64,000 nucleotides of DNA from an uncultured Thermoplasmatales archaeon. Lineage in GTDB: Archaea; Thermoplasmatota; Penumbrarchaeia; Penumbrarchaeales; Penumbrarchaeaceae. Location: NCBI GenBank assembly GCA_964445525.1, contig CAYULA010000002.1:34576-98575 (forward strand). The letters are read 5' to 3'. The notes under the pieces were generated by a model. It had not been told where the DNA came from, made no database searches, and saw only the letters and a program-made list of their open reading frames with translations. Positions 11,847-48,890 of this stretch are shown here, one piece after another. Both the position numbers and the translations under genes were made by a program. The stretch's first letter is position 1. Each line of letters starts with the position of its first letter.

Positions 11847-12337
11847 TATGAAAAATGAGCAAAGTAGCTCTCTTTTTTTCATATTTCCGCAATGCAGAGT
11901 ATACAATTGACGCTCTGTTTTGACCTTGGAATTGTTGATCTTTGAAAAATTTTATTCTAATTCCAAGGCATGCACAATGGTTTCTCTTATTAACGATCCA
12001 TTGGTGCTGTGGTGTGAAATTGCGATGCAAATAAAAAAATGACGCGAGTAATTTACGAGCTCCTTGAAAAGGAGTGACTTACGAAAAAACTCGCTTGTTA
12101 TTTTTCATGCTATGTTGTGAAAAGCAGTTCATGAGAGTTTTTTTTATAACCTGATTCTATTTATATTTTTAACAATTTAACTGAATAATACGATCCCTCT
12201 CTCCTCCATGGAAATGAAGCAGCAAAATTGCTTTAGGGGAGTAGATAGATAACATCCTAATGATATGAAATTTGATCAAGCAAGGTTGCATCTGAATATT
12301 ATATGGCCATTGAAAGGAAAATAACAAGGAAGATATT

Positions 12338-13828: not shown

Positions 13829-14039
13829 TATTATGAAAATTCGTATAGGAATCAAATCTATCAAATTTAATTTATTAATATTACTATTTGTGTAACTAGA
13901 GATTAAATCACTTAATCCTTTGTTCACTCTGAAATTCTCTTACCATTGGTTGGAGATTTGTAAAAATCTTATTTATTGAACAACAATGACGAATATTTCA
14001 GATTCGGAAAAATTCCGGTAAAAACTCCGGTAAAATAAG

Positions 14040-14470: not shown

Positions 14471-15373
14471 TTAAAACATGAGTTCCGAGGACCTCAACAG
14501 ATCCAGCATTAGATCGATGAAAGGTCTGAGATTGCCATCAACCTGTCCAATTTCAAGACAGCTGTAGTATTCCATTTTCCTTCTGCTGGGGATGTTGACC
14601 ATGGGATAACCCTTCGAATGGAGGATGAAATTCATCAGGAGCCTGCCCACCCTTCCGTTTCCATCCACGAAGGGATGAACTGTCTCGAATCCCATGTGGA
14701 AATATGATGCAAGCACAAGCGGGTGCAGTACATGCCTGTTTCTGGTATACCACGAGAGGAGCTCCTTCATATCCTCGGGTACATCCTGTGGAGACGGGGG
14801 CATCCATTCCACCCCCCTGATGAATACCTGCACATCCCTGTATCTCCCGATCTGTCCTTTCAGATCCTCCCGGATCGCATCCTCCATTACAAGTTCATGA
14901 AGCTTCATTATCAGGTCCCTTGACATATCTCCTCTGTAAGCCAGGATGAAATCGAATCCCTTCTTGTGATTGATAACCTCATTTATCTCCCTGAGGTGCT
15001 TGGCCCGAGGTGTGATGCCTTCGAAGAGCAGACCCGCTGTTTCCTGGAGGGTCAATGTATTTCCCTCTATTGCGGTGGAATCGTGGGTGAACCTGGAAAG
15101 GAATGTCTCGTATCTGTTCATCCAGTTCTCCTTTGGAAGTGTGGAATACCTCGATTTTATCATCCCAAGTTCCTCGATCTCCGATCCCGAAAGCAGGTTT
15201 TCGAGGACGTGAAGCTCCCTGTCGGCTTCTCTTTCAAGCCTTTCCCGCTCTTTATCGGAGAGATCCTTTCCGAGGTAGATTCTGTTCTTTTTCACCTTTC
15301 CCTCCCTCCTTCTGGACCTGACCCTGTAGTAATATGACGACCCGTTCCTTTCCTTTCTTTCCGTATAGCTCAT
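14471..15373 (-). CDS. Fic/Doc-family protein (putative AMPylator) with an intramolecular inhibitory helix
   Basis: Canonical Fic active-site motif HPFVDGNGRVGR. An upstream (S/T)xxxE(G/N) inhibitory motif STAIEGN, which is the class II / intramolecular arrangement. Confidence 0.8.
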   Translation of the reverse strand: MSYTERKERNGSSYYYRVRSRRREGKVKKNRIYLGKDLSDKERERLEREADRELHVLENLLSGSEIEELGMIKSRYSTLPKENWMNRYETFLSRFTHDSTAIEGNTLTLQETAGLLFEGITPRAKHLREINEVINHKKGFDFILAYRGDMSRDLIMKLHELVMEDAIREDLKGQIGRYRDVQVFIRGVEWMPPSPQDVPEDMKELLSWYTRNRHVLHPLVLASYFHMGFETVHPFVDGNGRVGRLLMNFILHSKGYPMVNIPSRRKMEYYSCLEIGQVDGNLRPFIDLMLDLLRSSELMF

Positions 15374-15515
15374 GATAATTGTACGTCCACACTGATAGAT
15401 ATTTATTTTGGTTTGTGGACGTACAATGTACGTCTACATTAACAAAGTAAAAACGAACCATTGTAGTCGTACACATCCAAAATATCAATTTAGAGGTTTG
15501 ACGGTACCCGAATTC

Positions 15516-16070
15516 ATGCCGACAGATGATCCTTATGAGGTTCTCGGGGTCCCCAGGGATGCCGATATCACGGAGATCAGGAAAGCCTACAAGAACCTGG
15601 CAAGGAAGCTCCATCCCGACAAGAGCGGATCCAATGTCAGGGCGCTTGAACAGATGAAGCTTGTCAATGAAGCATATGCGATACTTTCTAACAAGAGAGC
15701 AAGGGACATCCTGGAAGACGAGGAAGACTGGAAATGCAATGCTACGGAGGAAACCAGGGAGAAAGTGTGGAAGGAGTACTCCAAACAGGTTGAGGAATAC
15801 TACCAGCAGGTGCAGTCCTACCTTGAGACCGAGCTCTCCTCAATAAAAAGGGAAAGGGAGAAGCTCTCCGGGATCGAATTGAAGCTCAGAAAAAGAGAGG
15901 AAGAACTGAAAAAAAGGGAATCGGAGATTGAAAGCAGTATCAAAAAAAGAGAGGATTACATTTCCAGGAAGGAATCGGAGCTGGACGAGCTCCTGATGCT
16001 GATCTCACGCTCCAATTCCATCGTGGTTGATCTGGCCCAGTCCTCCAAATCCCTGAGAAACAGGAAATAA
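15516..16070 (+). CDS. J-domain (DnaJ-like) protein with a coiled-coil C-terminus. It has no zinc-finger or substrate-binding domains.
   Basis: DPYEVLGVPRDADITEIRKAYKNLARKLHPDK carries the HPD motif. The start is at Met 15516 (MPTDDPYE). The C-terminal half is charged and coiled-coil-like. Confidence 0.7.
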   Translation: MPTDDPYEVLGVPRDADITEIRKAYKNLARKLHPDKSGSNVRALEQMKLVNEAYAILSNKRARDILEDEEDWKCNATEETREKVWKEYSKQVEEYYQQVQSYLETELSSIKREREKLSGIELKLRKREEELKKRESEIESSIKKREDYISRKESELDELLMLISRSNSIVVDLAQSSKSLRNRK

Positions 16071-33997: not shown

Positions 33998-34025
33998 GGG
34001 GGCTTCTTTCGAGGCCCCTTTTTTT
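33998..34025 (+). terminator. GC hairpin (GGGGC ... GCCCC) followed by T7 just after the stop of the 31383..33971 gene
   Basis: ccgggggcttctttcgaggcccc followed by ttttttt. Confidence 0.45.
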
Positions 34026-34125
34026 ATGTACATTTACAAGTAATGTTTATAAATAAAAAGATGTTTTTAATTAAGTCCAGTGTCCTGTAATTGAGGGCAG
34101 GAACAACTCTGATGGGTGAGGGAAG

Positions 34126-37100
34126 ATGAAACGAGAGGTATTCGCGGTACTGATTACATTCGGATTGTTATTGGTAACTGGAGAATCAGTTTTCGGTATA
34201 ATTGCCGAAAATGAGGATATTGAACCCATGATTCCAGAATTTGATTTTCAGTTTTCAGGAGGAAATGGGACCAAAATCAATCCATACAAAATCTCGAACA
34301 TAACGGAGCTCCAATGGATGGGAAATACGTCGAATCTGGATAAACATTTCATTTTTATAAACGATATCAATGCATCCGCAACTTTAACCTGGAATGGAGG
34401 AAATGGATTCGATCCGGTTGGTGATTCAAGCAACCGCTTCGATGGCTCGATTAACGGCAATGGTTACAAAATAATAAATTTATTAATAAACAGATCGAGT
34501 GATGACTTTGTAGGGTTGGTAGGTGATCTTGGAGTAACAGGATATCTCTCCAATATCACAATGCTAAATGCCTCGATAAATGGCGAGGACATTTGCGGAA
34601 TTCTTGCTGGCAGATCTTTCAAAGGAACAATTCATAATTGCTCCGTAAACGGATCGGTGAAAGGATCAACAAATATCGGAGGTTTGGTTGGCAGAAACCA
34701 TGAAGGAAAAATTTCAAATTGCTTTTCTGGTTGTAATGTAATCGGGAGGGGACAGAAAATTGGAGGTATGGTAGGTTATAATGAAGATGCAAAAACTTTT
34801 GAAAACTGTAGTTCAAGATCTTATGTTAAGGGAACTGAAAATGTTGGAGGATTGATTGGAGATAATGAAGGATCATTTATTGAATGGTCGAATTCAACAT
34901 CCATGGTGATTGGAACCGGAGCTGTGGGAGGTTTAATCGGGTATAATCATTTTTATTCAAGAATTACTAATTGTCATTCGAGATTTGAAATAAATTCCAC
35001 AAGAGATAATATTGGAGGACTTATCGGGAAGAATCAAAACAACTGTCCAATATTCCACAGTGGTTCAATTGGAAAAATAAATGGTAGGAATCAACTTGGA
35101 GGAATTGCAGGTTACAACAATCAAAAAATCATCAATTCATCCTCAGAGGTTGAAATAACAGGTCAAAGTATGATTGGAGGTTTAGTAGGAGAAAATCATG
35201 GAGAAATAAGGAATTGCACGGCTGATGCTGAAATTGAAGGTGTCCAAAGATTAGGAGGATTGGTTGGTGATGGTAGGGACAAATCGATTTATGATAGTAT
35301 ATCTTATGGAAATGTTACAGGAACCACTTACTATATCGGAGGATTTGTAGGTGGTATTATTTCGATTGATGTAATCAATTGTCGATCATATGCTAATGTT
35401 AATTCAACAGGAGAATATGTTGGTGGATTTGCGGGTTATCCAAGTTTATCTAATATAAAGAATAGTTTATCCGATTGTGAAGTAAAGGGAGAAACCAACG
35501 TGGGAGGTTTTTTAGGTGTAAACTCTTATTGTATCATTGAAAATTGTCATTCATTTGGATGGGTTAACAGTACAAAGGATTATACTGGCGGTTTCATAGG
35601 ATTGAATTTAGGTACGATATCAAATTGTTCCTCCCTTTCAAATGTTAACGGAAAGAAATCCACTGGAGGTTTAATTGGAAAGAACAATAATAATTATGAA
35701 ATTAAGGAATGTTTCTCCAATGGTAATGTTACAGGAACCGATTACATAGGTGGTTTAATTGGTGAGAATTACGGTAAAATCTTGAATTGTTATTCTCAAG
35801 GTGGTGTGAATGGACCTATGAATAAATTGGCATATTTTGGTGGTTTATTAGGATATAATAACGGTAGAGTAACAAATTCGTATTCCACAGGAAAAGTAAC
35901 CGGAACATTTAGGAAAGGATTCATTGGTGATAATTACGGAACAGTTCAAAATAGCTTTTGGGACTATGAATCTTCAGGAGTTACATATAGTGACGGTGGA
36001 ACAGGAAAAAACTCTTCCGAGATGAAATCTCAGAACACATTTTCATCAGCAGGATGGGATTTCAACGAAACCTGGTACATTATTGAAGATGAAACCTATC
36101 CAATGTTATCCAATAATTTAATGGATTATTCCGTTCCGGTATTTCTTGATGATTATACAAATATTTCAGGGTCTACCGGGACCAATTTTACCTTTAACAT
36201 TAGTGTAACAGATAATATTGGTTTAAGTTTTGTAATGGTAGAATTCTGGTATGGCAATGGTTCGCATTTAGAAAAACAATTGAAGCTCAATAATACATAT
36301 AAAACCTTTACTGAATTGCCCGTTAATTCCACTGATACCCTATATTATTTTTTTCACGCAAGAGATTTCAAGGGAAATACTAATTCTACACCAATAAAAA
36401 ATGTAACAATCAATGATATTTTGATCCCGTTTTTTAGTAATGAAACAACACAAAATAATGGTACGACCGGTGATCAATTTCAATTCAAGATATATGCATA
36501 TGACAATATCGGTATCCAGAACGTATATTTGGAATATTGGTCAAACTTCACAAAGAAAACTAATGTTTCCATGGAGGAAAACGGTTATTTTATCAAAAAT
36601 ATACTTTTACCCTCCAATGTAACAAATATCTCTTATCAGTTCCATGCAGTGGATTTATCTTTCAATTGGAAAAGCACAGATGTAAAAACTTTATTAGTAT
36701 TGGATAACGACAAACCTCTATTTGGTAAGGACCTCACTGCTGATAACTGGACAACAGGAGATATTGTCGAATTTTCCATTATTGTACAGGATAATATCAA
36801 TGTCAATAGTGTCAAAATAGAATACTGGTTCGGTTCGGGACCTCGATTCAATGAATCCATGGTTTTCGATTCTGGATCCTATACCTTCGATCTCATGATC
36901 CCCCCGGATTCGCTTGATCAGCTTCACTACATCTTCCATGCGGTGGATACCTCGGGCAACTGGAACAGGACCGATCAGATCGATGTGGCTGTTCTGGATG
37001 ATGATAGACCAATCTTTGGTATGGATGGATCTGCGGTTCTGGGAACCACAGGTGAACAGTACCGTTTCGGAATCGGAGTGGTTGACAATATCGGTATCGA

Positions 37101-38634
37101 GGAGGTCAAGGTGGAATACTGGTTCGGAGAAGGGCCTCACACCAATGTCACAATGACCGGGGGCGGTCCTTTTTCCCACATTGCCGATATACCACTGGAT
37201 TCTTCAGAAACACTGCATTACATCTTCCACGCATCGGATACCTCCGGCAACTGGAACCATACCCCGCAGGTGGATGTGGATATACTTGACAACGATCTGC
37301 CGGCATTCATGGAGGATCTCTCAGATACCACGGCGACAACGGGTGATAATTTCTCTTTCGAGATCGAGGTGACTGACAACATCGGTATCTCCGATGTTTA
37401 CGTGGAGTACTGGTTCGGGACCGGAGACCATAACAATGAATCCATGATTTCAGTGGATTCCTTTGGTTTGAGAATCGAGATCCCATCCGACTCGGTGGAG
37501 AGGCTCAATTACATCTTCCATGCAGTGGATGAATCCGGGAACTGGGCACACACGGACCGGGTGGATATCCAGATCGCAGATAATGACATGCCGGAAATGA
37601 TCGCCGACGAGAGTCCGGACGAAGCTTTTACCGGAGAGGATCTGGAGATAATTATCCGTGCAACCGATAACATCGGGTTGGCAGAGGTCGAACTTATCTG
37701 GATGATCGGATCGGATATTGATGAACAAAGAGTCGATATGGACCTCGAGTCAGGGAATTATGTTCACACCATCCAGGTTCCGGTCGATACGGTTGATCCT
37801 CTCCGGTACGTGATGAGGATAATCGATACCTCGGGTAACATATTCGAATCGGATGAAGCAACCATTACCATAACTGACAGTATATCTCCAACCGTCGATC
37901 CTGTGGATGATATCACTGTTTATGATGGACAGGACCTCGATGTCAATGTAACAGGGTCGGATAATATCGGTATCGCTTCATATTCGTGGGAAGGAGCTCC
38001 CATCGATGCAGATGGTTCCGAACTGAAAGGGATCGTGACAGTTCCGGGTGATCATGATATCACTGTCACCATTTCCGATGAGGAGGGCAATACCGATTCC
38101 ACTACTTTCAGAGTCACGGTTCTTGCGGAGGACCATGACACTGATTCCGACGGCATCCCGGACCTAGTCGAAATGGAGTGGGGCCTCTCCATCGAGGATC
38201 CTTCGGATGGCGAGGAGGATGCAGATAATGACGGGATGTCCAATGCTCTGGAGTATGCGAACGGGACCCTTCCCTTTGATGATGATACCGATGATGACGG
38301 AATGCCGGACGGATGGGAGGACAGCTACGGCCTGGATCCAACGACCTCCTCTTCAGATAACGATGCCGATGGTGACGGCAAGACCGACCTTGAGGAGTAT
38401 CGGGAAGGTACCGATCCTCTGATCAAGGAAAAGGAAGATGACGATGATGGCGGAGGATCCCCGATAGTGATCATTGTGATCATCGCGGTTGTTATCCTCA
38501 TTGCTATCGGTCTTTTGCTGTTTTTCCTTACCAGAAAGAAGGAAGAAAAATTGGAAAATGAGCCCTCCGATGGTCAGGACACATCAGAAAATGCTATTGA
38601 GGATCCAAGAGATGATGAAAATGAAAATCCTTGA
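34126..38634 (+). CDS. Giant (1502 aa) surface protein. An N-terminal array of ~25-aa GLUG-type repeats, eight ~100-aa Ig-like repeats, thrombospondin-type-3-like Asp-rich calcium-binding repeats, a C-terminal TM anchor and a short acidic tail.
   Basis: GLUG-like periodicity (...NIGGLVGRNHEGKISNCFSGCNVIGRGQKIGGMVGYN... repeated ~25 times). The repeated module ...DNIGI..V..EYWFG.G... occurs eight times. DTDSDGIPD, DADNDGMSN, DTDDDGMPDGWEDSYGLDP and DNDADGDGKTDLEEY are also present. TM IVIIVIIAVVILIAIGLLLFFL. Confidence 0.6.
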   Translation: MKREVFAVLITFGLLLVTGESVFGIIAENEDIEPMIPEFDFQFSGGNGTKINPYKISNITELQWMGNTSNLDKHFIFINDINASATLTWNGGNGFDPVGDSSNRFDGSINGNGYKIINLLINRSSDDFVGLVGDLGVTGYLSNITMLNASINGEDICGILAGRSFKGTIHNCSVNGSVKGSTNIGGLVGRNHEGKISNCFSGCNVIGRGQKIGGMVGYNEDAKTFENCSSRSYVKGTENVGGLIGDNEGSFIEWSNSTSMVIGTGAVGGLIGYNHFYSRITNCHSRFEINSTRDNIGGLIGKNQNNCPIFHSGSIGKINGRNQLGGIAGYNNQKIINSSSEVEITGQSMIGGLVGENHGEIRNCTADAEIEGVQRLGGLVGDGRDKSIYDSISYGNVTGTTYYIGGFVGGIISIDVINCRSYANVNSTGEYVGGFAGYPSLSNIKNSLSDCEVKGETNVGGFLGVNSYCIIENCHSFGWVNSTKDYTGGFIGLNLGTISNCSSLSNVNGKKSTGGLIGKNNNNYEIKECFSNGNVTGTDYIGGLIGENYGKILNCYSQGGVNGPMNKLAYFGGLLGYNNGRVTNSYSTGKVTGTFRKGFIGDNYGTVQNSFWDYESSGVTYSDGGTGKNSSEMKSQNTFSSAGWDFNETWYIIEDETYPMLSNNLMDYSVPVFLDDYTNISGSTGTNFTFNISVTDNIGLSFVMVEFWYGNGSHLEKQLKLNNTYKTFTELPVNSTDTLYYFFHARDFKGNTNSTPIKNVTINDILIPFFSNETTQNNGTTGDQFQFKIYAYDNIGIQNVYLEYWSNFTKKTNVSMEENGYFIKNILLPSNVTNISYQFHAVDLSFNWKSTDVKTLLVLDNDKPLFGKDLTADNWTTGDIVEFSIIVQDNINVNSVKIEYWFGSGPRFNESMVFDSGSYTFDLMIPPDSLDQLHYIFHAVDTSGNWNRTDQIDVAVLDDDRPIFGMDGSAVLGTTGEQYRFGIGVVDNIGIEEVKVEYWFGEGPHTNVTMTGGGPFSHIADIPLDSSETLHYIFHASDTSGNWNHTPQVDVDILDNDLPAFMEDLSDTTATTGDNFSFEIEVTDNIGISDVYVEYWFGTGDHNNESMISVDSFGLRIEIPSDSVERLNYIFHAVDESGNWAHTDRVDIQIADNDMPEMIADESPDEAFTGEDLEIIIRATDNIGLAEVELIWMIGSDIDEQRVDMDLESGNYVHTIQVPVDTVDPLRYVMRIIDTSGNIFESDEATITITDSISPTVDPVDDITVYDGQDLDVNVTGSDNIGIASYSWEGAPIDADGSELKGIVTVPGDHDITVTISDEEGNTDSTTFRVTVLAEDHDTDSDGIPDLVEMEWGLSIEDPSDGEEDADNDGMSNALEYANGTLPFDDDTDDDGMPDGWEDSYGLDPTTSSSDNDADGDGKTDLEEYREGTDPLIKEKEDDDDGGGSPIVIIVIIAVVILIAIGLLLFFLTRKKEEKLENEPSDGQDTSENAIEDPRDDENENP

Positions 38635-40214: not shown

Positions 40215-41237
40215 ATGCTGGTGGAAGCTGTAGATGACGACATCAAGAGGGATGTCTGGAAGAGGGACGAGTTCACGTGCCGCTACTGCGGGAGGACCGT
40301 TGCATGGGAGGATGTGAACCTTGTTTTGGATGTGCAGCCGGAAAAAGGAGGAGAGGTTGCCCCCTCAAATATGCTCACTGTCTGCTCCACCTGTTTGACC
40401 GAGGGAAAGACAGCCCCCGTAGAGGAGAAGGACAAGCAGAGACTTCTGGGAATAATCAGAGAGCTCGTCTGCTACACCGATCTCACAGACGAGGTAATAT
40501 TCGAGATGGACCACGAGCAGGAGATCGAGAGGCTCCTTGCGAAGATGCAGGCCCTCAAGGAGGATAATCAGAGGCTTTCTGCCGCAATTCAGCAGAGGGA
40601 GAGGCTTGCAATAGGTTACAAGCAGAAGATGGACAGGGTCCTCAAGGATATGGAAAACTTGAAGAGAAGACAGGAGTCGGATATAGAACTGAGAGTGGAT
40701 GAGGGCACCAGAAAGGTAATCCTGTCCATGATCGAGACCCTTGACGATATCGACAGGGCCATCCAGGAAGCAAGGAAGGATAACGGAGTCAAGGAGGTTC
40801 AAAATATCATTTCCGGCCTGGGAATGATAAGGAAAGCCTTGATGGACAGGCTGAGGTCACAGAGTGTCCAGAAACTGGACCCCAAGGGGGAGATATTCGA
40901 TCCGAACTATCACGAAGCGGTATCCTCGGTGATGAATAGAAAGGTCCCCAAGGGAACGGTCCTCGAGGTCCGGCAGCCGGGTTTCATCCGGGGCCACCAT
41001 CTTCTCAGACCGGCCATGGTGATCATATCCAAGGGTGGTAAAAAACCCGAAAGGAAAGAACCCGAGAAACTGGAGGAGTTCGAGCTGGACGAGGAGACAG
41101 ATGAGATAGAGGTCCTCCCCCTGGAACCCTGGACGCCGGGCAGTAACGATACCGAATTCGTGGTCAAGAAACCAAAGAAGAAGAAAAGGGTTTCAAAACG
41201 GAAGAAAAATACTCAATCCAAGGGCGATAAAACATAA
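40215..41237 (+). CDS. grpE: GrpE nucleotide-exchange factor with an N-terminal degenerate HNH-like zinc ribbon and a Lys-rich C-terminal tail
   Basis: The GrpE C-terminal domain is clear (...GMIRKALMDRL...GEIFDPNYHEAVSSV...VLEVRQPGFIRGHHLLRPAMVIISKG), preceded by a long coiled coil. The N-terminus WKRDEFTCRYCGR...LDVQPEKGG...NMLTVCSTC resembles an HNH zinc finger with the catalytic His replaced (DVQ for DHI). Confidence 0.7.
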   Translation: MLVEAVDDDIKRDVWKRDEFTCRYCGRTVAWEDVNLVLDVQPEKGGEVAPSNMLTVCSTCLTEGKTAPVEEKDKQRLLGIIRELVCYTDLTDEVIFEMDHEQEIERLLAKMQALKEDNQRLSAAIQQRERLAIGYKQKMDRVLKDMENLKRRQESDIELRVDEGTRKVILSMIETLDDIDRAIQEARKDNGVKEVQNIISGLGMIRKALMDRLRSQSVQKLDPKGEIFDPNYHEAVSSVMNRKVPKGTVLEVRQPGFIRGHHLLRPAMVIISKGGKKPERKEPEKLEEFELDEETDEIEVLPLEPWTPGSNDTEFVVKKPKKKKRVSKRKKNTQSKGDKT

Positions 41238-41269: not shown

Positions 41270-43708
41270 TTGGCTCTGAAGGATCACGGATTGACTGCCC
41301 GGGAAGGGATAATGCTCCATCTTCTGGAATGCGATATCTACAGAAATGACGATATTGTGCCGGAGTCAGTGACACAGCCGGGAATCGCCAGGGCATTGGA
41401 CACTGACAGGAGCTATGTTTCCTTCGTCCTGTCGCAGATGGAGAGCAATGATACGGTGATAAACAAGCTGGGCAGGATCCAGGGGGGAAAGAGGAGAAGG
41501 AAGGTCTACTTCCTAACGGAGGAAGGGCTGAAATATGCCCAAGATATCAGGACCCTGATCTCCGGAATCCGGATTGCATACAAGAGCAAGGGGAAGGAAC
41601 TCAACAATCCCCTTGGATATGTCGCTTCCGAGGCAGGCCTCTCACTGACCACCATGGTGGTGAACATGGATGCCTCATCGGTTTTCGACCTTGACGATAT
41701 CACCCTTCTCGGCAGGACCAAAAAGAGATCCCCCGGAGGGCCCAGAGGTCCTCCTGTTCCCGATAATTTCAAGGGCAGGAAAAAAGAGATCTCAATTATC
41801 AGGTCCTGGTTGAAGGGAAGCTCCGGCATTCTCCAGGTCAACGGCATCGCGGGAACGGGAAAGACATCACTTGTGGGGAAAGCTCTCGAGGAGGAAATCG
41901 ATCCCGAACTGACCACGATTTACATTCCCGTACCCTCCTGGGGGGATGATTCGTCACTGATGACGAACCTCTCCAGGGAGCTTGAATCGGCAAATAGGTT
42001 GTCACTATCCAGCCTGCAGAAGGAGAAGGGCTCCCTTTCCCTGGATGAGTTCGCGAGAGGCCTCGAACAGGAGATATCAAGGAAATCCATGCTCCTGAAC
42101 CTGGATGACGTTCACAATCTTATCGGAAAGGGAAGGAAAAGCAAGGTCCTCGATCTGATCATCAGTATGTCCGTAAAGGACCTTAAGACCATTCTGATCT
42201 CCAGGAAGCCTCTCGAGCTTGACCCCAGGTTATCAATGAGATCGGATCCCCCCCTAATCCTGGAGGTGGCTGGATTGAAGAAGAACGATGTCAGAAGCCT
42301 TTTCGAGGACCACGATCTCGATTTCAACAATGATATCTATTCCAGAACCTCCGGTCATCCCCTCTACGTGAATCTTATTATCCATCATCACTGTCAGGGA
42401 GATGCGCTTGAACCCGGAAAGAGCATAAGGACATTCATCCGAAACGAGGTCCTGGAATGTCTCAACAGAACGGAGATGGACCTTCTGGATATCATGTCCG
42501 TTTTCAGGGTCCCAGTATCCAGGGAGAGGCTGTTCGATCTGGATGCCGGGGACCTTCTGATATCCGAGTCGGGCCTGCAGAGCCTGATGGGAGGGGGGAT
42601 ACTGACCGGAGGGGAGGGGTCCATCGTGATCCACCAGCTTATTAAGGATATTGTTCTCGAGATGATGCCCAAGAGCAGGTCTCTCAGGATACACAGGATC
42701 TTATCGGAACATTACAGGGAGAGGCTGGATCTCCAGACGATGCCGGTAAAGGATGTTTCCGGGAGGATCATCGATCTCAGGGAATACCTGCACCATATCT
42801 GGACCTGCGGAACAATCGGAGAAAGACTCTCCGCAATTTCCGACATGGGAGAGGAGATCATGAGCAGGTCCCTCAATGATGACCTGGAGAGATACAGCAA
42901 GGATATGCTGGATGAGATATCCCGGTCCCATGAAGCGGAATCACTCGATCCATCTCTCATGATCAGGATAATGATCTATCACGGATGGTGCCTGTCCGTC
43001 AGAGGAGAATGGGAAAAGGCCCTTGAAGAATACGACAGGGCCAGGATGAAAGCTGAGGAGATCCCCAGCTGGGACCTGGTTGGCAGATGCCTGAATGCCG
43101 TCGGGACCATACATCTCAGGAGGGGCGATCCCGAAAATGCCAGGGAGCTGATATCGAGGTCCATCGAGTTGATGGATGACAGGCGCACCCTTTGCAAGGC
43201 AAGGTCAAATCTTGCCATAGTACACTGGATGGAGGGACGCCTCGAGGAAGCCCTGGAGGAGGTTGACAGATCCCTGGATCTTGCACTGTATCTGGATGAT
43301 GCCATGGGAGTATCCAGGGGACTGATAAACAAGGGAATAATACTGGCCCAGATGAATGATTTCGAGGGATCGGGTTCCGCTTACGAGAAAGCCCTTGACA
43401 TATGCGAGAGGGAGGGTTTTTCCCAGACATTATCCATAGTACACGACAATCTCGGTGAGATAAGAAGGGAACTGTGTGACCTGGAGGCTTCCAGGAAACA
43501 TTTCGAAAAGAGCCTCTCGCTGGCAGCTGATCTCGGCTTCAGGTGGCAGGTGGCTGAGGCCACCCGGAACCTGGCATCCCTCACGGAGAAGGGACCGAGG
43601 AGAACCGGAATGTTCATGGAGTCCATTGAGATTTTCAGGGGCCTCGGTGACCTGAGAGAGGTCGAGAGGACCGAGGAGATGATGAGGGAGAGTCCCGATA
43701 AGGAATAG
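41270..43708 (+). CDS. STAND-type NTPase: N-terminal winged-helix DNA-binding domain, AAA/NB-ARC-like P-loop ATPase, C-terminal TPR array
   Basis: The N-terminal wHTH-like region is ...DIVPESVTQPGIARALDTDRSYVSFVLSQME.... Walker A GIAGTGKTSLVGKAL. The C-terminal ~300 aa are TPR-like (...ALEEYDRARMKAEE..., ...EEALEEVDRSLDLAL..., ...SAYEKALDICEREG...). Confidence 0.6.
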   Translation: MALKDHGLTAREGIMLHLLECDIYRNDDIVPESVTQPGIARALDTDRSYVSFVLSQMESNDTVINKLGRIQGGKRRRKVYFLTEEGLKYAQDIRTLISGIRIAYKSKGKELNNPLGYVASEAGLSLTTMVVNMDASSVFDLDDITLLGRTKKRSPGGPRGPPVPDNFKGRKKEISIIRSWLKGSSGILQVNGIAGTGKTSLVGKALEEEIDPELTTIYIPVPSWGDDSSLMTNLSRELESANRLSLSSLQKEKGSLSLDEFARGLEQEISRKSMLLNLDDVHNLIGKGRKSKVLDLIISMSVKDLKTILISRKPLELDPRLSMRSDPPLILEVAGLKKNDVRSLFEDHDLDFNNDIYSRTSGHPLYVNLIIHHHCQGDALEPGKSIRTFIRNEVLECLNRTEMDLLDIMSVFRVPVSRERLFDLDAGDLLISESGLQSLMGGGILTGGEGSIVIHQLIKDIVLEMMPKSRSLRIHRILSEHYRERLDLQTMPVKDVSGRIIDLREYLHHIWTCGTIGERLSAISDMGEEIMSRSLNDDLERYSKDMLDEISRSHEAESLDPSLMIRIMIYHGWCLSVRGEWEKALEEYDRARMKAEEIPSWDLVGRCLNAVGTIHLRRGDPENARELISRSIELMDDRRTLCKARSNLAIVHWMEGRLEEALEEVDRSLDLALYLDDAMGVSRGLINKGIILAQMNDFEGSGSAYEKALDICEREGFSQTLSIVHDNLGEIRRELCDLEASRKHFEKSLSLAADLGFRWQVAEATRNLASLTEKGPRRTGMFMESIEIFRGLGDLREVERTEEMMRESPDKE

Positions 43709-43720
43709 GAGTGTGTTGAT

Positions 43721-45259
43721 TTGAAGGCAGATTTTAGTGGAATCGATCCCAGGACCGGCCGGTCCTCGGGAGAATTGTTTAAAGATTCAACCAGGGAAGA
43801 AATTGATGAAAAGATCATAAAAGCATCAAAGTCCTTTGACGCTTTTTCATCACTTTCCAGAAATAAGAGAGCGGGATTTTTGAGGGCGGTTTCCCGTGAG
43901 ATAAAGGATCTGGCAAAGGAATTATTGGAGACCGCCGACAGGGAAACCGCACTGGGTCATAGGAGATTGAGGGGAGAGATGAATAGGACCTGCAATCAGC
44001 TTGTCTCCTTTGCCGATCACATTGAGGAAGGCTCCTATCAGGAAGTCGTGATAGATACCGGAGATCCGAACAGGTTCCCCGCTCCCAAACCCGATATCAG
44101 GAGGATGCTCTTTCCGATAGGACCGGCGGCAATATTCGGGGCATCCAACTTCCCGTTTGCATTCGGGGTGCTCGGTGGCGACACGGCATCCGCTCTTGCC
44201 GCGGGATGCACCGTTGTTGTCAAGGGACATCCGTCACATCCGGAAACCAACGAACTGTTCCTCTCAGCGGTTGAAAGAGCAGTTGATGAAACCGCTATCC
44301 CAGACGGAGTTTTTTCCCTGGTCCAGGGAGTCGGAAACGAGGTGGGTGAGGAGCTTGTGATGCATCCCTTGATCAAGGCCGTGGGATTCACGGGAAGCAG
44401 AAGAGGAGGAATGTCCCTGTCCGGGAAAGCCTCCGCCAGGGACGAACCCATACCTTTCTATGCGGAGATGGGAAGCATCAATCCTGTGATAGTAACCAGA
44501 GAGGCTGTTTCGAAGGATCCTTCTTCCGTGGCAGTGAAGGTGGCGGGGGCGGTTCTGCACGGATCGGGACAGCTGTGTACAAAACCAGGACTGGTCCTGG
44601 TGGAGGAGGCTCCCGGTCTGGAAACCTTCAGGGAGGCCCTGGAAAACAGGATGAGAACGGACAGATGCCAGCCGCTTTTAAATCACCAGATAAGGGAAAA
44701 CCTTGAACATGGCCTCGGGAAGCTATCGGGAATTGAGGGCATAGAGATGGCGGGAGGCGGGAAGGTCCGGGATGATAATTCCATAACATTTGAAAATACT
44801 CTGATCACGGCTTCCTCCGAGATCTTCCGCCGGGAGCCTCTCCTGCATGAGGAGAGGTTCGGTCCCGTAACATTGGTTGTAGGATGCAAGGGAAGGGAGG
44901 ACCTCCTGAAAACGGTGGAGTGTATCGAGGGCCAGTTGACCGGAACTGTCATGAATGCCGGGGAGGATGATGTTGAGGACATTCTGAGGGTCCTCACCTC
45001 GAAGGTGGGGAGGATCATATTGAATGGAGTCCCCATCGGTGTGGAGGTAAACCATTCAATGCAGCACGGAGGACCTTTCCCCGCAACTACAGCTCCGTGG
45101 ACGACATCCGTTGGCATGATGTCAATCAAAAGATGGCTGAGGCCCGTGGCTTTCCAGAATATTGATGAGAGGTATCTTCCCCTCGAGTTGAAGGATGACA
45201 ATCCCACGGGAATAATGAGGATCGTCAACGGGAAATATTCGAGAGGACCTGTTGGATAA
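43721..45259 (+). CDS. Aldehyde dehydrogenase superfamily protein (NAD(P)+-dependent; KGSADH/ALDH-like)
   Basis: ...IFGASNFPFAFGVLGGDTASALAAGCTVVVKGHPSHP..., the catalytic Cys region ...GQLCTKPGLVLVEE..., and ...EERFGPV.... Confidence 0.7.
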   Translation: MKADFSGIDPRTGRSSGELFKDSTREEIDEKIIKASKSFDAFSSLSRNKRAGFLRAVSREIKDLAKELLETADRETALGHRRLRGEMNRTCNQLVSFADHIEEGSYQEVVIDTGDPNRFPAPKPDIRRMLFPIGPAAIFGASNFPFAFGVLGGDTASALAAGCTVVVKGHPSHPETNELFLSAVERAVDETAIPDGVFSLVQGVGNEVGEELVMHPLIKAVGFTGSRRGGMSLSGKASARDEPIPFYAEMGSINPVIVTREAVSKDPSSVAVKVAGAVLHGSGQLCTKPGLVLVEEAPGLETFREALENRMRTDRCQPLLNHQIRENLEHGLGKLSGIEGIEMAGGGKVRDDNSITFENTLITASSEIFRREPLLHEERFGPVTLVVGCKGREDLLKTVECIEGQLTGTVMNAGEDDVEDILRVLTSKVGRIILNGVPIGVEVNHSMQHGGPFPATTAPWTTSVGMMSIKRWLRPVAFQNIDERYLPLELKDDNPTGIMRIVNGKYSRGPVG

Positions 45260-45271
45260 ACCTTTAATCAA

Positions 45272-47329
45272 CTATTCGAATGGATCCTTCTCATCCTTTT
45301 TCTTGGAGGTCCTATTGAGCAGTATTATGAACAGCAATATCATAACTATCACAACCACCACTATAATGATGATCAAAAGTGTGTTCATCATCTTGACACT
45401 TTCAAGTTCATCTTCTGTTGACCTGAGGTCCTCCTCCAGTGCGCCTCTGGATTCCGATGCGGCATCGATATCGCTCTCGGTATCCGAAAGCCCGGACTCC
45501 ACGGAATCTATCCTCGATCCTTCATTCTCCAGCAGGGATTCCAGTGAATCGATGGTGGAGTTCAGGGATTCGAGGTCCGATAAAAGGTCTTCCAGGTCCT
45601 CCTCGCTGATATTGAGGTCCTCCGAAAGGGAGGTAAGATTGGAATCAAGCGAAGAGATATCCTCCCTGATCATGGTGAGGTTCTCGAGGATGTGAAGGAT
45701 ATCTGCCTGCGTGAGGGCAAGGTCCTCGATCAGAGTAGGTATCGGGTCCGTGAAATTCACGGTCCTTGTGACGGTTTCGGAGTTACCGGAAGCATCCGTT
45801 GACGTGATGGTGATCAGGTTGCTCCCGGGGTAAATGGGAATGTCCAGCTGGAAGTAACCAGAATTTGATACATCGGCCACGATCCCGTTCACAACAACCG
45901 TGGCAAGACGTTCCGTGGTTCCGTTCACGGTCACCACCGGTGTGGAACAATTTCCATTGTCTTGAGGTCCGAAAACATCTATGGACGGAGGTACATTATC
46001 ACGCTCGAAGTAGGTGTTGGCCCAGACGCTTGGTTTTTTCGTATCATACTGGATCCAGGCTGAAATGGCATTTCCGAAGAGACCGATGTCCACAACCGGC
46101 GAATAGCAGAATGTTAACCTGGACTCAATGAGTTGTTCTGTGGACCAACCTTTTTCGGGTGTATACCTGCAATATGCAACATTGTAGGTGTCATCTTTCA
46201 GCCAGTTGCATACCATTATCGCTTCCCCTGACCGAGCCATGGAGATATCCGAACTGGTGGCGCTCTCCACGAGGATCTCTGCTTCTCCCCAACCTGTTTC
46301 CGGGGAGTAATCGTTGGTAATGATATTGTTATCGACACCATCGATCTGCCTCCAGACAGCGATGGCATTTCCCTGTCCATCCATTCCAATCCTGGGATAT
46401 CTTTCATTGGTATCATCATATGATTCGATGATTTCATCCGATCCCCAGCCCGATCCTGCCACATATCTGTTTGAGAACATGTCGTATCCTGTACCTGGAT
46501 CCTTTGACCAGACCACCAGGGCGTTTCCATCCTCATCCATGACAACACCGGGTGTGTCCACATTTCCGGGGTCGCCGCTGTCAATCCTCTCGGCCGACCC
46601 CCATCCTATGTCGGGAACATAAACATTGGCCCATACTGTAAATCCACTTGGGGTGAACTGTTTCCATGCCACAACCGCCCTGCCGGACGGATTCACGAAA
46701 ATACTTGGATACAGGGAAGACCCGGAATCAACGGTCTCCACAAGCTCGGAAGTTCCCCAACCGGAACCTCTGACCCATCTGTTTGCCCAGATACTCATTT
46801 CGCCTCCATCGTTCTGTCTCCAGACAACGATTGCAGTTCTACCCAACCTATCCATGGAAACCTCCGGATTCTCAACATTGTTGACCTCATCGGTTTCCAG
46901 AAGAACAGCTTCCTCCCAACCATCACCAATATGTCTTGTTCTTGCATAGAGATTGTATGAGGACCCTTCCAACTGGGTCCAGACCGCTACATAGTGACGA
47001 CCTTCGGGACCAACATCGATTGATGGGTACCTTGCATCCGTGAATCCGGCTGTATCGATAACCTCGGGAACATCCCACCCTGTGTCCTTGTCATAAACGT
47101 TTGTCATGGCATTGTCATAGCTGCCATCGTCCTGTATCCATATTGCACAGGCATCGTTCATATCATGGACTGCCACATCGACACTGTATGATGCCCCTTC
47201 ATGTTCGTTCTCCAGCAGCACCGGATTCTGCCAGCCAACGGGTGGCTCCTCTGCATTTGACGGCAATATCATCAACGATGAAACCATCAACATCAAACCA
47301 GCAAGTAAACAGTAAGATCCCGTTCTCAT
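45272..47329 (-). CDS. Secreted surface protein with a ~7-blade repeat region (likely beta-propeller), an Ig-like domain, an acidic Ser/Leu-rich coiled coil, a C-terminal TM anchor and a short Lys-rich tail
   Basis: Signal peptide. About seven repeats of the type ...VAVWTQ..GSSYNLYARTRHIGDGW... / ...AIVVWRQNDGGEMSIWANRWVRGSGWG.... Coiled coil ...LEDLLSDLESLNSTIDSLESLLENEG.... TM LLIIIIVVVVIVMILLFIILL. Confidence 0.55.
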   Translation of the reverse strand: MRTGSYCLLAGLMLMVSSLMILPSNAEEPPVGWQNPVLLENEHEGASYSVDVAVHDMNDACAIWIQDDGSYDNAMTNVYDKDTGWDVPEVIDTAGFTDARYPSIDVGPEGRHYVAVWTQLEGSSYNLYARTRHIGDGWEEAVLLETDEVNNVENPEVSMDRLGRTAIVVWRQNDGGEMSIWANRWVRGSGWGTSELVETVDSGSSLYPSIFVNPSGRAVVAWKQFTPSGFTVWANVYVPDIGWGSAERIDSGDPGNVDTPGVVMDEDGNALVVWSKDPGTGYDMFSNRYVAGSGWGSDEIIESYDDTNERYPRIGMDGQGNAIAVWRQIDGVDNNIITNDYSPETGWGEAEILVESATSSDISMARSGEAIMVCNWLKDDTYNVAYCRYTPEKGWSTEQLIESRLTFCYSPVVDIGLFGNAISAWIQYDTKKPSVWANTYFERDNVPPSIDVFGPQDNGNCSTPVVTVNGTTERLATVVVNGIVADVSNSGYFQLDIPIYPGSNLITITSTDASGNSETVTRTVNFTDPIPTLIEDLALTQADILHILENLTMIREDISSLDSNLTSLSEDLNISEEDLEDLLSDLESLNSTIDSLESLLENEGSRIDSVESGLSDTESDIDAASESRGALEEDLRSTEDELESVKMMNTLLIIIIVVVVIVMILLFIILLNRTSKKKDEKDPFE

Positions 47330-47492
47330 TTCCTTTTCCCCGTTACCGAATTGCCTTTCTATGATTTATCTATATTTATTCTATTATTATTGTAATGAAA
47401 TTAAATTGAAGGGAAAAAAATCCTCACTGAATCAAAGATTCGGCTGGCCTTTGTTTTCACACTTTTATAAAAATGGTTAGTGAAAACAAAGA

Positions 47493-47510
47493 TGGTGCGA
47501 GGGCTGTGAT
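47493..47510 (-). repeat. 18-nt perfect copy of the 3' end of the tRNA-Leu gene (T-stem 3' strand, acceptor, CCA), 147 bp downstream of the intact gene and in the same orientation
   Basis: tggtgcgagggctgtgat at 47493-47510 is identical to 47657-47674. Confidence 0.8.
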
Positions 47511-47656
47511 GTTAGAATCGTGATATAATTAACGTTAATCCAGATTCTAACATTCAGACCAAAAACGGTTTTCATTTCAAATTCATCATTTTTGGTTGCA
47601 GTGAATTATTTTCAAGCACCATTTTTCGTAATATTATATAATCGACGAAAGAAAAA

Positions 47657-47743
47657 TGGTGCGAGGGCTGTGATTTGAACACAGGAACCACTAAGGACTA
47701 GACCCTCAATCTAGCGCCGTTGACCAAGCTAAGCTACCCTCGC
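47657..47743 (-). tRNA. tRNA-Leu (anticodon GAG), type II with a 13-nt variable arm, CCA encoded
   Basis: Reverse-complement reading: acceptor GCGAGGG/CCCTCGC; D-arm with GG; anticodon stem CTAGA/TCTAG with loop TTGAGGG (U33, G34 A35 G36, G37); variable arm TCCTTAGTGGTTC; T-arm CTGTG-TTCAAAT-CACAG; discriminator A; then CCA. Followed on its strand by a T-rich tract. Confidence 0.85.
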
Positions 47744-47910
47744 ACACGATTGGTGGTTTCTTTTGGCGGATGTTTTCGAACCACCAATCCATGAGGGTAG
47801 CTTAACGGTCAACGGCGCCCCGGGAACTTGTTTCCGGGTTATGCGCCGTAGGTCGGTTGCCTGCAACCGGCCATTTCCGTCAACGCTTTTTCCTTTGGGA
47901 AAAAGGGTTG

Positions 47911-47967
47911 TGACCAAGCTAAGCTTTTCGTGCCCAGCTTGTTACCCTCGCACACGATTGGTGGTTC
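47911..47967 (-). repeat. Diverged direct copy of the tRNA-Leu 5' region plus ~45 nt of its upstream leader, with an 18-nt insertion. Likely a pseudo-tRNA fragment or att-like remnant.
   Basis: tgaccaagctaagct[tttcgtgcccagcttgtt]accctcgcacacgattggtggtt matches 47721-47758 apart from the bracketed insertion. Similarity continues beyond it (tggcggatg). Confidence 0.7.
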
Positions 47968-48026
47968 ACTGGCGGATGATCCTGAAGGGACCTCACATCC
48001 GGTCGGGATGTAGGTTGATTTGATAT

Positions 48027-48890
48027 TTAAGCTTCATCGAGACCCGAGATCTCTTCTCTCAGACCCTCGTATCTGTCGGAAAGCTGATTCAGGGCATAAT
48101 TGAGAGCATCCTTTGCCGGAATCGATCCATCGGTCTCGAATGTGAAGACGAACTTGTCCTCCTCGTAGGAAATCTCGACCGCCTTTTCGCCGTTTATGGC
48201 ATCCAGGGCTGAAGAATCGTAGTAGTTGGGATCCATTTTCTCCAGGGGTTTGAGGTCCTTGACAACGATCTTTCCCTTCTCATAGGCAAGGACCCCCTCG
48301 GGGAATACCTTCACTACCTCCTGGGGGTCATCAAGCTTGGCATTCTTGTTGACTACCAGCTTGGGGTAGTTCATGAATCCGCAGATTGTAACCGGCTGCC
48401 ACTTGGCATGGGTCTTTCCCATTCCGAGCACCGCCGTGGCATAGATCAGAAGCGCCTGTTTCTCCTTGAGCTTCACAACAGGTATGAGCTCCTCCTTGAT
48501 CCTGAGGCTCATATCGCCCAGAGGCTGAAGGTCCCCGGAATATACCGTGCAGGGTCCTTTCTTGTTCATTACATATATTATCGTGCAGTGAGGACACCCG
48601 GTTCCCCCGCATTCGCACTGATCCCTGAACGTGAAGTGCTCCAGGTCTGTGGGAATGGGAACCAGGCTGAGCCTGTGGGCGATCATCTCGTCGAAGAGGG
48701 CGGAATTGGAATCGTATTCGTTTCCCTCCTCGTCCCTGATCGGCCCCATATGGAACTCAACCTCGTCGATGGCCATCTTGGGGACATCGGATATGAGCGT
48801 TCTCCTGATAGAATTCATTACGTCGGGTCTGACCTTGTCTACAACCAGCGTGCATTTCGTATCGGTCAGCTCCCTTACCTCCAATTTCAT
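48027..48890 (-). CDS. rpoD: DNA-directed RNA polymerase subunit D (Rpo3) with a Cys-rich Fe-S cluster-type insertion
   Basis: The typical Rpo3/RpoD N-terminus (...VRELTDTKCTLVVDKV...VMNSIRRTLISDVP...) and a Cys cluster QCECGGTGCPHC. Its position after uS11 is the conserved archaeal order. Confidence 0.85.
   Translation of the reverse strand: MKLEVRELTDTKCTLVVDKVRPDVMNSIRRTLISDVPKMAIDEVEFHMGPIRDEEGNEYDSNSALFDEMIAHRLSLVPIPTDLEHFTFRDQCECGGTGCPHCTIIYVMNKKGPCTVYSGDLQPLGDMSLRIKEELIPVVKLKEKQALLIYATAVLGMGKTHAKWQPVTICGFMNYPKLVVNKNAKLDDPQEVVKVFPEGVLAYEKGKIVVKDLKPLEKMDPNYYDSSALDAINGEKAVEISYEEDKFVFTFETDGSIPAKDALNYALNQLSDRYEGLREEISGLDEA

Follow-up and report, generated by a model that had tools for sequence, protein, structure and literature searches.

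Organization of the tRNA-Leu(GAG) locus

The stretch of DNA analyzed here (the window; 64 kb of contig CAYULA010000002.1) comes from an uncultured Thermoplasmatota archaeon, placed through the relatives of its RpoD. It carries an intact tRNA-Leu(GAG) gene with an encoded CCA (47657-47743, minus strand; Rfam RF00005, 44.9 bits), the only tRNA found by ARAGORN, which detects no tmRNA in the window either. Read along the minus strand, on which all the features of this locus lie, rps13-rps4-rps11-rpoD (identified with Pfam, directly upstream and in the same orientation) are followed by a 208-nucleotide (nt) upstream element, the tRNA and a single downstream unit of 164 nt; the series closes with the terminal module, which has hairpins and a run of seven T residues (T7). 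Partial copies of the tRNA surround it, and an original prediction explained them as scars of integration and excision. Our analysis shows that they are the ends of small hairpin-rich cassettes, which are probably functional structured elements rather than dead integration scars. Modules of the same kinds recur at this tRNA in some 40 related loci from metagenome-assembled genomes and metagenomes (RpoD 62 to 98% identical to that of the window), gathered from species-representative genomes, one metagenome scan, an RpoD protein search and look-ups of the contigs encoding those proteins. The tRNA follows rpoD in relatives with as little as about 62% RpoD identity. A Logan assembly made independently (SRR7048224, L111) agrees with the window at every base of the locus, so the arrangement is not a one-off assembly artefact. 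A TATA-like box, CTTAAATA (48024-48031), overlaps the rpoD stop codon, and a GCTTAAATA-type box is found there in nearly all related loci. Judging from archaeal promoter architecture, this box presumably serves the tRNA-Leu transcription unit as its promoter.

The repeats themselves are real, all four being far above chance level. The 18-mer copied from the tRNA 3' end, TGGTGCGAGGGCTGTGAT, occurs exactly at two sites only, 47657-47674 and 47493-47510, as the original prediction had it; with up to three mismatches 0.04 matches are expected, and none of 100 shuffles gave two or more. The exact run is in fact 19 nt and extends to 27 nt at 93% identity, the copies starting 164 nt apart with 146 nt in between. 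The inverted copy of the tRNA 5' region claimed at 47793-47818 consists of two perfect 12-nt arms split by a small indel (47793-47804 against 47730-47741, and 47807-47818 against 47714-47725). The claimed direct copy of the 5' region and leader is a perfect 15-mer (47911-47925 = 47721-47735) and a perfect 24-mer (47943-47966 = 47735-47758; zero expected by chance) on the two sides of an 18-nt insertion. An inverted repeat is also present in the leader, but it measures 11 nt (GATTGGTGGTT/AACCACCAATC) instead of the 8 bp first given.

The upstream element (47951-47744) is composed of a sense copy of the tRNA (S5), hairpins hp1 and hp2, the heptamer ACGGCGC, hairpin hp3, an antisense segment (A5) and a hairpin between an anti-leader and the leader. 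Upstream modules across loci open with a copy of the leader and of the tRNA 5' end. In the window, the leader copy (CATCCGCC...AACCACCAATCGTGT, 47952-47978) forms direct repeat D2 with the true leader (47744-47772). It is followed by S5 (47911-47951; repeats D2 and D3), which corresponds to tRNA positions 1-21 and is interrupted by the insertion (47942-47925) between GCGAGGGTA (47951-47943) and GCTTAGCTTGGTCA (47924-47911); homologous insertions of 15 to 17 nt lie at the same place in L010 and L011. Hairpin hp1 (47881-47910; CAAC-CC-TTTTTCC/GGAAAAA-GC-GTTG) recurs with different complementary stems in L001, L002, L008, L011, L013, and L106, its outer CAAC/GTTG changing to GAAC/GTTC. Hairpin hp2 (47851-47872) is predicted in the minimum free energy (MFE) structure, and relatives have a positional equivalent of different sequence. 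The heptamer, a copy of tRNA positions 22-28, and hp3 (CCCGGAAAC-AAG-TTCCCGGG) together occupy 47819-47849; hp3 is kept as CCGGGAACAAGTTCCCGG in L001, L002, and L106 and covaries in L011 (CCCTGGAAGC/GCTTCCAGGG). A5 (47793-47818; inverted repeats I6 and I7) is antisense to tRNA positions 3-28 and pairs with S5 as the closing helix in the MFE structure of the isolated element. Directly 5' of the tRNA, the anti-leader GATTGGTGGTT (47789-47779) and the true leader (47772-47744) form a hairpin (47744-47789; inverted repeat I9), whose equivalents in L007, L010, and L008, read directly, have covarying arms (GGCGGAT/ATCCGCC, TGCGGAT/ATCCGCA). The inverted copy and the 18-nt insertion are parts of a conserved and strongly folding element: the first 159 nt, from S5 through A5 (47951-47793), have a folding z of -5.6, with GAGGGUA/UACCCUC as the closing helix.

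Another type of upstream element (type-1) has a fixed core of 81 to 85 nt, of which we found 12 copies, and is closed by helix P2, a D-arm copy (GCTTGGTCAA) paired with its complement around hairpins hpA, hpB, and hpC. In L012 (2367-2466) two type-1 elements stand in tandem; a run of N inside this array marks a gap, the assembly having been scaffolded across the repeat. An 86-amino-acid open reading frame (ORF) on the opposite strand (47763-48023, plus) overlaps the upstream element of the window; it has no Pfam match and is most likely spurious.

On the other side of the tRNA, the window has one downstream unit of the D type (47662-47493), formed by hairpin X1, a 17-nt junction, hairpins H1 and X2, and a copy of the tRNA 3' end (S3). 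In X1 (47616-47662; inverted repeat I4, 12/12), the tRNA 3' end and trailer (GCACCATTTTTC) pair with GAAAAATGGTGC across an AT-rich loop of 23 nt with TTTCGTCGAT and the TATA-like TTATATAA. H1 (47558-47596; ACCAAAAATG/CGTTTTTGGT) pairs an A-run with a T-run below a variable loop that opens with TGATGA, and X2 (47510-47552; TGTTAGAATC/GATTCTAACA) has a loop related to that of X1. The unit ends with S3 (47493-47509; TCACAGCCCTCGCACCA), an exact copy of tRNA positions 60-76 that starts in the T-loop. The terminal module (47414-47491; inverted repeat I3, 12/12) has a hairpin CTTTGTTTTCAC/GTGAAAACAAAG, a second small hairpin and the T7 run (47420-47414). It also follows the last unit in L002, L003, L106, and L107, and a variant of it is found in L010.

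Conservation and variation of the cassettes

A common rule emerges from these loci. Each module has a sense copy of a tRNA end on its far side, two or three hairpins, and, beside the tRNA, a segment antisense to that copy. Upstream, the sense copy covers the leader and the first 15 to 28 nt of the tRNA; downstream, it covers the last 17 to 28 nt, from the T-loop on. Since sense and antisense segments stand in one cassette, the cassette can close on itself; alternatively, its antisense segment is able to pair with the genuine end of the tRNA. Downstream units form tandem arrays of one to at least six copies. The D-units number one to three in relatives, with a period of 162 to 164 nt, and their geometry is fixed: the J1 junction has 17 nt, and H1 always begins 17 nt after TGGTGCT. 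In 20 of the 32 tabulated loci, mostly those with enough downstream sequence, there are downstream copies identical to the 17-mer of the resident tRNA. The match is exact in genomes of the CACAG type and of the CTCAG type alike, so S3 follows the change in the T-stem. The strands of X2 resemble the tRNA variable arm (CCTTAG) and T-loop (GTTCAAAT versus GTTCTAAGG), which suggests that the D-unit derives from the 3' half of the tRNA. In L003, the acceptor stem of the tRNA (4698-4784) is mismatched, its 3' strand reading CACTCGC instead of CCCTCGC, while both S3 copies downstream are perfect. Either an error of sequencing or assembly or the preservation of the functional 3' end by a downstream copy could explain this.

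The loops of X1 and X2 share the motif TYTCGTYRAY, which lies 6 nt after CCA in most loci. The motif is concentrated around the tRNA (38 of 49 matches in a quarter of the sequence), and in three junctions counted by hand the two copies flanking one S3 are 52 nt apart. The loop motif TCGTCRAT was considered as a general promoter element of this genome and rejected, because it is not enriched elsewhere in the window and differs from the TATA/transcription factor B recognition element pattern upstream of other genes. The distal tRNA-GrpE spacer of L120 (4240-4420) and L012 (2830-2900) carries further hairpins whose loops have a TCGTCAATTA motif in the opposite orientation, so the motif-bearing hairpin is a building block reusable beyond the D-unit; a conserved GGTCTGGACATCC...GATGTCCAG hairpin lies in the same spacer. 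The X1 loop of the window (47628-47650) also contains TAATATTAC, the origin nonanucleotide of geminiviruses and other CRESS-DNA viruses. A geminivirus-like origin was discarded, as the nonamer is absent from all other X1 and X2 loops, where only the terminal ..TAC recurs, and is probably a chance occurrence in AT-rich sequence. Likewise, a k-turn at the TGATGA of the H1 loop was dismissed by eye for lack of a partner CUGA in register, and the small ORFs in the units are not conserved.

Two other families of units are found in the relatives. The M-units have a period of about 115 nt, number up to at least six copies, and occur in L013 and L124-L129, whose tRNA has the T-stem CTGAG/CTCAG. They end in TCTCAGCCCTCGCACCA, so M-units track their own tRNA. 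They open with GAGGGCTGA or GCGAGGGCTGA, paired with TCAGCCCTC(GC) and followed by a free (GC)ACCA. The resulting helix, which is 11 bp long in L013 and 9 bp long in L124-L129, resembles an acceptor plus T-stem and has the form of a tRNA minihelix with a single-stranded NCCA. The D-unit of the window is not such a mimic of the tRNA top half, as its GCACCA is paired with UGGUGC. Units of the third type, E, are found in L120 and L121. They retain an almost entire T-arm together with an antisense copy of it, and the wobble pairs of their closing helix, read directly, fit the sense strand.

Compensatory substitutions were found in seven helices. Pairing was tested for X2, H1, X1, and the type-1 upstream core with 500 shuffles and a slide control per test. 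Not one of the 500 shuffles matched the real alignment in paired fraction or covariation score in any of the four tests, and pairing fell sharply, to 70% or less, when one partner was slid by at least one column. In X2, 94.7% of the cells are paired (67% when shuffled), with changes on both sides in 8 of 10 pairs; in H1, 91% (82% shuffled), with both sides changed in 5 of 11 pairs and a U.G wobble conserved in 14 of 19 units. The 13 X1 junctions have 97.4% of cells paired (90.5% shuffled) and double changes in 5 of 12 pairs, and the trailer within them covaries (TTTTC/GAAAA, CATTC/GAATG, TTCCC/GGGAA). The type-1 core (P2, hpA, hpB, and hpC) is 90% paired (80% shuffled), with compensatory changes in 17 of 32 pairs. 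Helices with covariation above both controls are what is generally expected of structured noncoding RNAs. Folding is also strongly non-random, with z values of -4.3 for the D-unit and -9.6 for the whole locus, besides that of the upstream element. We are therefore confident, from comparison of the sequences, that the cassettes are conserved, constrained and bounded by tRNA ends rather than being random scars. The part of the original prediction that saw decaying remnants was thus not borne out: the fragments are the ends of modules whose architecture is constant in about 40 loci and whose hairpins are kept by compensatory changes.

Module content also seems to vary between close relatives. Assemblies that are otherwise nearly identical differ by entire modules; all of them were built from short metagenome reads across repeats, and each single difference is provisional. 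Two modules of L106, an upstream element between copies of a 57-nt direct repeat and an additional D-unit bounded by the 17-mer, are missing from L107; the number or order of units differs between L105 and L108, within L115-L119, between L120 and L121, and within L126-L129; and L118 lacks a 51-nt submodule. Upstream and downstream modules occur independently of one another. In L117, where the order of units differs from that of L106, the tRNA (3676-3790) has an internal duplication of 25 nt (TTCCTTAGTGGTTCCTGTGTTCAAAT) and is no longer called by ARAGORN; this is probably an assembly artefact in the repeats, a disrupted allele being possible. Subtypes of units are common to several species, roughly in line with RpoD divergence, and the units within L001 are 90 to 95% identical. 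This pattern fits vertical descent combined with local duplication and loss. A profile of the unit searched with nhmmer matched only beside tRNA-Leu(GAG), in the window and in all the loci (about 260 kb of related sequence), so that a dispersed miniature inverted-repeat transposable element or a repetitive extragenic palindrome-like element was rejected. No analogous repeats surround the tRNA-Leu(CAA) of L025, the only other tRNA available.

The tRNA-linked variable region implied by the original prediction does exist. In the window, the ancestral neighbor GrpE (40215-41237) is displaced from the array by three extra genes (41270-47329). One of them encodes a surface protein of 685 amino acids that has a glucodextranase-B domain; the products of the other two are an aldehyde dehydrogenase and a STAND/AAA-TPR ATPase of 812 amino acids. 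As GrpE immediately follows the array in several relatives, 41270-47329 is an inserted or variable island, with no tRNA-end repeat flanking it. Toxin-antitoxin genes occupy the tRNA-GrpE region in relatives.

Origin and possible function

On the strength of these comparisons we tentatively propose, at somewhat less than even confidence, that the cassettes act as tRNA-derived structured RNA within the tRNA-Leu transcription unit. They would act on the tRNA-sense strand, transcribed from the TATA box at the rpoD stop to the T7 run, with possible reinitiation from the TATA-like loops of X1. The signal for termination or 3' processing that the tRNA itself uses would be employed again by the copy of its 3' end and the T-rich trailer, and the top-half helix of the M-units with its free GCACCA would be of the kind recognized by RNase P, tRNase Z, and the CCA-adding enzyme. 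The outcome may be an array of structured small RNAs punctuated by tRNA ends, or leader and trailer domains that modulate the folding of pre-tRNA-Leu. In the whole-locus MFE structure, A5 pairs with the real 5' third of the tRNA, X1 takes the real 3' end, and the decoys S5 and S3 pair with each other; alternative pairings are thus available, and their occurrence is a prediction of the model only. The cassettes probably originated as partial duplications of the tRNA gene, possibly through ancient integration events, and the arrays would grow and shrink by recombination between tRNA-end repeats. Such an origin is plausible because of the variable tRNA-GrpE region and because S3 starts where the identity block of T-loop integrases does. 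Several observations speak for RNA: all the modules lie between the TATA-like box and the T7 run; the M-units mimic the top half of the tRNA; and H1 has a conserved sense-strand U.G wobble and is more stable on the tRNA-sense strand in 15 of 18 units.

Other observations weigh against a role as RNA. Apart from the H1 wobble, G.U pairs are not commoner than A.C on the sense strand (9 versus 9 in the upstream core, 2 versus 4 in X2, and 2 versus 3 in X1), and the folding energies of whole elements have no consistent strand preference. This is atypical for structured RNAs, and folding as DNA or on either strand would fit equally. If the X1 loop were a promoter, the antisense segment would lie upstream of the predicted start, and X1 would then not be an RNA helix. 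The cassettes are dispensable, as some genomes have no upstream element or few units. No family of Rfam 15 besides tRNA was found in the window or in nine relatives, where all others are far below threshold and inconsistent between loci; accordingly, C/D and H/ACA small RNAs, hammerhead ribozymes, tmRNA, and T-boxes were rejected.

The same data can be read at the level of DNA, which we think rather unlikely: the modules would be miniature integrative cassettes that are not autonomous, or else attP-like sites that have accreted, and a site-specific recombinase encoded elsewhere would insert and excise them. S3 (the block from the T-loop to the 3' end) and S5 (the block of leader and D-loop) would be the crossover sites, and the hairpins with their TCGTCRAT loops would be recognized by the recombinase in folded single-stranded DNA, as in integron attC or HUH-nuclease sites. 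One class of tRNA-targeting integrases has an identity block running from the T-loop (59/60) to CCA. S3 starts at just this position, and exact direct repeats of tRNA ends mark the bounds of every cassette. The lack of a G.U bias over A.C in the helices, the location in a variable gene island, the 52-nt spacing of the motif copies flanking S3 (in the three junctions counted by hand), the variable stems around a conserved loop motif that L120 has in both orientations, and the whole-cassette differences between the near-identical assemblies listed above also favor this reading. Those differences may nevertheless be assembly errors in repeats, and the sharing of subtypes, roughly parallel to RpoD divergence, suggests vertical descent. 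A 146-nt insert would be implausibly small as a double-stranded circle, and the cassettes are restricted to one tRNA in the related sequence. The original prediction proposed a search for an integrative element with a matching attachment (att) site, and none was found. No integrase, transposase, HUH, or Rep gene lies near the locus in the window or next to any array. In IMG/VR, the att 17-mer gave 2 chance matches in ORFs of bacterial phages and the unit pattern 78 chance matches without nhmmer support, and blastn against INPHARED phages and PLSDB plasmids returned nothing relevant for either, so a provirus or plasmid att site was rejected. A casposon-like insertion with target-site duplication was also discarded because the ends of the units, read directly, are not terminal inverted repeats, as was the primer-binding site of a retroelement because the antisense segment matches just 6 nt of the mature tRNA end.

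The original prediction held that the copies are non-functional leftovers of repeated integration and excision, or of tandem duplication, at a tRNA hotspot. Of this, the tRNA-linked variable region and the modules bounded by tRNA-end direct repeats stand, and the decay does not; we consider neutral scars quite improbable. Direct repeats of tRNA ends are the classic footprint of integration in archaea (PMC3293823; bioRxiv 10.1101/2022.07.05.498093; PMC3218864), synteny downstream of the array is broken, and terminal units do decay, such as the third of L001, that of L007, and those of L015 with degenerate S3. However, scars would not maintain the architecture and length of modules over a deep clade, nor a conserved loop motif, fixed junction lengths and strongly non-random folding; the same 164-nt or 115-nt unit would not be obtained repeatedly by independent deletions; and compensatory substitutions in seven helices largely contradict this view. 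The stretches between the repeats measure just 146 nt and about 200 nt, with no integrase remnant or foreign cargo and the 86-amino-acid frame as the sole ORF, and the viral and plasmid collections hold no cognate element.

It is scarcely credible that the fragments are extra functional tRNA-Leu isoacceptors (split, tri-split, permuted, or intron-containing) assembled by bulge-helix-bulge (BHB) splicing, the outcome that the original prediction had named as its refutation. They do carry leaders, S5 and S3 are complementary and paired in the whole-locus MFE structure, and the fragments end at sites such as 59/60, a known position of introns or permutations in archaea (PMC3218864). However, ARAGORN and the Rfam tRNA model give the intact tRNA only, and positions 29-58 (the anticodon arm, the variable arm, and the 5' strand of the T-stem) are in no fragment. 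BHB-like motifs are at chance level (11, against a mean of 6.3 and a maximum of 13 in shuffles), and none is at a fragment boundary. The sequence beside S3 is already paired in cis within X2, and the independent occurrence of upstream and downstream modules also counts against it. For practical purposes this explanation was refuted.

Relation to known systems and further features of the window

tRNA-end duplications and tRNA-linked small RNAs are each already known. The former include archaeal integration of the SSV and pNOB8 types, with tandem accretion, and the partial tRNA genes of Thermococcaceae and Caldiarchaeum (PMC3293823; bioRxiv 10.1101/2022.07.05.498093). Our locus is alike in that direct repeats of tRNA ends (exact over 17 to 19 nt for S3, and over 24 + 15 nt for S5 with the leader) bound inserted DNA, the tRNA remains intact, the identity block on the 3' side extends from the T-loop as far as CCA, and module content seems to differ among close relatives within a variable region. 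It differs in that the inserts are of about 100 to 200 nt, with neither integrase nor cargo and no cognate element found; in their fixed hairpin architecture with compensatory changes over a deep clade; in the segment antisense to the duplicated tRNA end that each insert carries; and in the occupation of both sides of the tRNA, the 5' duplication taking in the leader. Split, tri-split and circularly permuted tRNA genes of Nanoarchaeum, Caldivirga, and Thermofilum (PMC3218864, PMC3491384, PMC4390854) also have leader-bearing fragments and a break at T-loop position 59/60. In contrast, the tRNA is intact here, there is no BHB and no middle fragment, and the fragments are paired in cis to an antisense segment rather than to a partner.

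RNAs are embedded in tRNA precursors or processed by tRNA enzymes in several systems, such as the tRNA-C/D small RNA dicistrons of plants and Nanoarchaeum and the MALAT1 mascRNA. The 3'ETS-leuZ sponge of Escherichia coli, mentioned in PMC6191717, is a functional RNA from a tRNA precursor, and viral tRNA-like structures and minihelices belong here as well (PMC7749636, PMC4695843). The likeness lies in a structured RNA adjoining a tRNA in one transcription unit, which is predicted here, and in the M-units, which imitate the top half formed by acceptor and T-stem and have an NCCA tail. What differs is the tandem array of up to at least six units, each ended by an exact 3' copy of the neighboring tRNA, and the D-unit of the window, which pairs its CCA end rather than leaving it free. 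Integron cassette arrays and Xer-exploiting (IMEX) arrays are built on folded single-stranded att sites. They share with these loci tandem cassettes split by a recombination-type site, hairpins with covarying stems, and array lengths that seem to vary among strains. Here, however, neither an integron integrase nor an Xer-type context is present, the R/L-box attC consensus and ORFs are missing, and the repeated site is a tRNA end; read directly, the stems of X2 and X1 show no GTTRRRY/RYYYAAC boxes of the attC consensus (R''/L''-L'/R').

Searches of Rfam and of full-text literature returned no account of conserved, self-complementary cassettes bounded by tRNA ends and standing in tandem on both sides of one tRNA. 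It is conceivable, if doubtful, that these loci represent an undescribed system in which copies of tRNA ends delimit tandem self-closing cassettes. One possibility is an operon of small RNAs punctuated by tRNA sequence, among them mimics of the top half that carry a GCACCA tail; RNase P or tRNase Z would release these RNAs, which could mask or unmask the real ends of tRNA-Leu. Alternatively, it could be an integron-like array without ORFs, a miniature archaeal cassette array that recombines at tRNA ends. Should the cassettes be RNAs, they would constitute a new class of tRNA-linked archaeal small RNAs and a natural mimicry of tRNA ends serving processing or the control of tRNA folding; if they are DNA cassettes, the locus would exemplify a new and minimal way in which cassettes accrete site-specifically at a tRNA. 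Under either reading, an uncultured lineage of archaea offers here a concrete system that is open to testing. Partial copies beside tRNA genes are routinely dismissed as integration scars, and this case calls for caution in the annotation of tRNAs and genomic islands.

Some features elsewhere in the window are worth recording. A Fic/DOC-family gene (14471-15373, minus) and a DnaJ-domain gene (15408-16070, plus) are divergent, and the 34 bp between them contain an inverted repeat, TGTACGTCCACA / TGTGGACGTACA, with the look of an operator. Two islands of low GC content (0.36 to 0.42, against about 0.51 elsewhere), at 12001-14000 and 34001-38000, may have been acquired horizontally; the former has a gene for a Schlafen AlbA_2/HATPase_c_4 protein (12338-13828) and the latter one for a 1,502-amino-acid GLUG-repeat protein (34126-38634).

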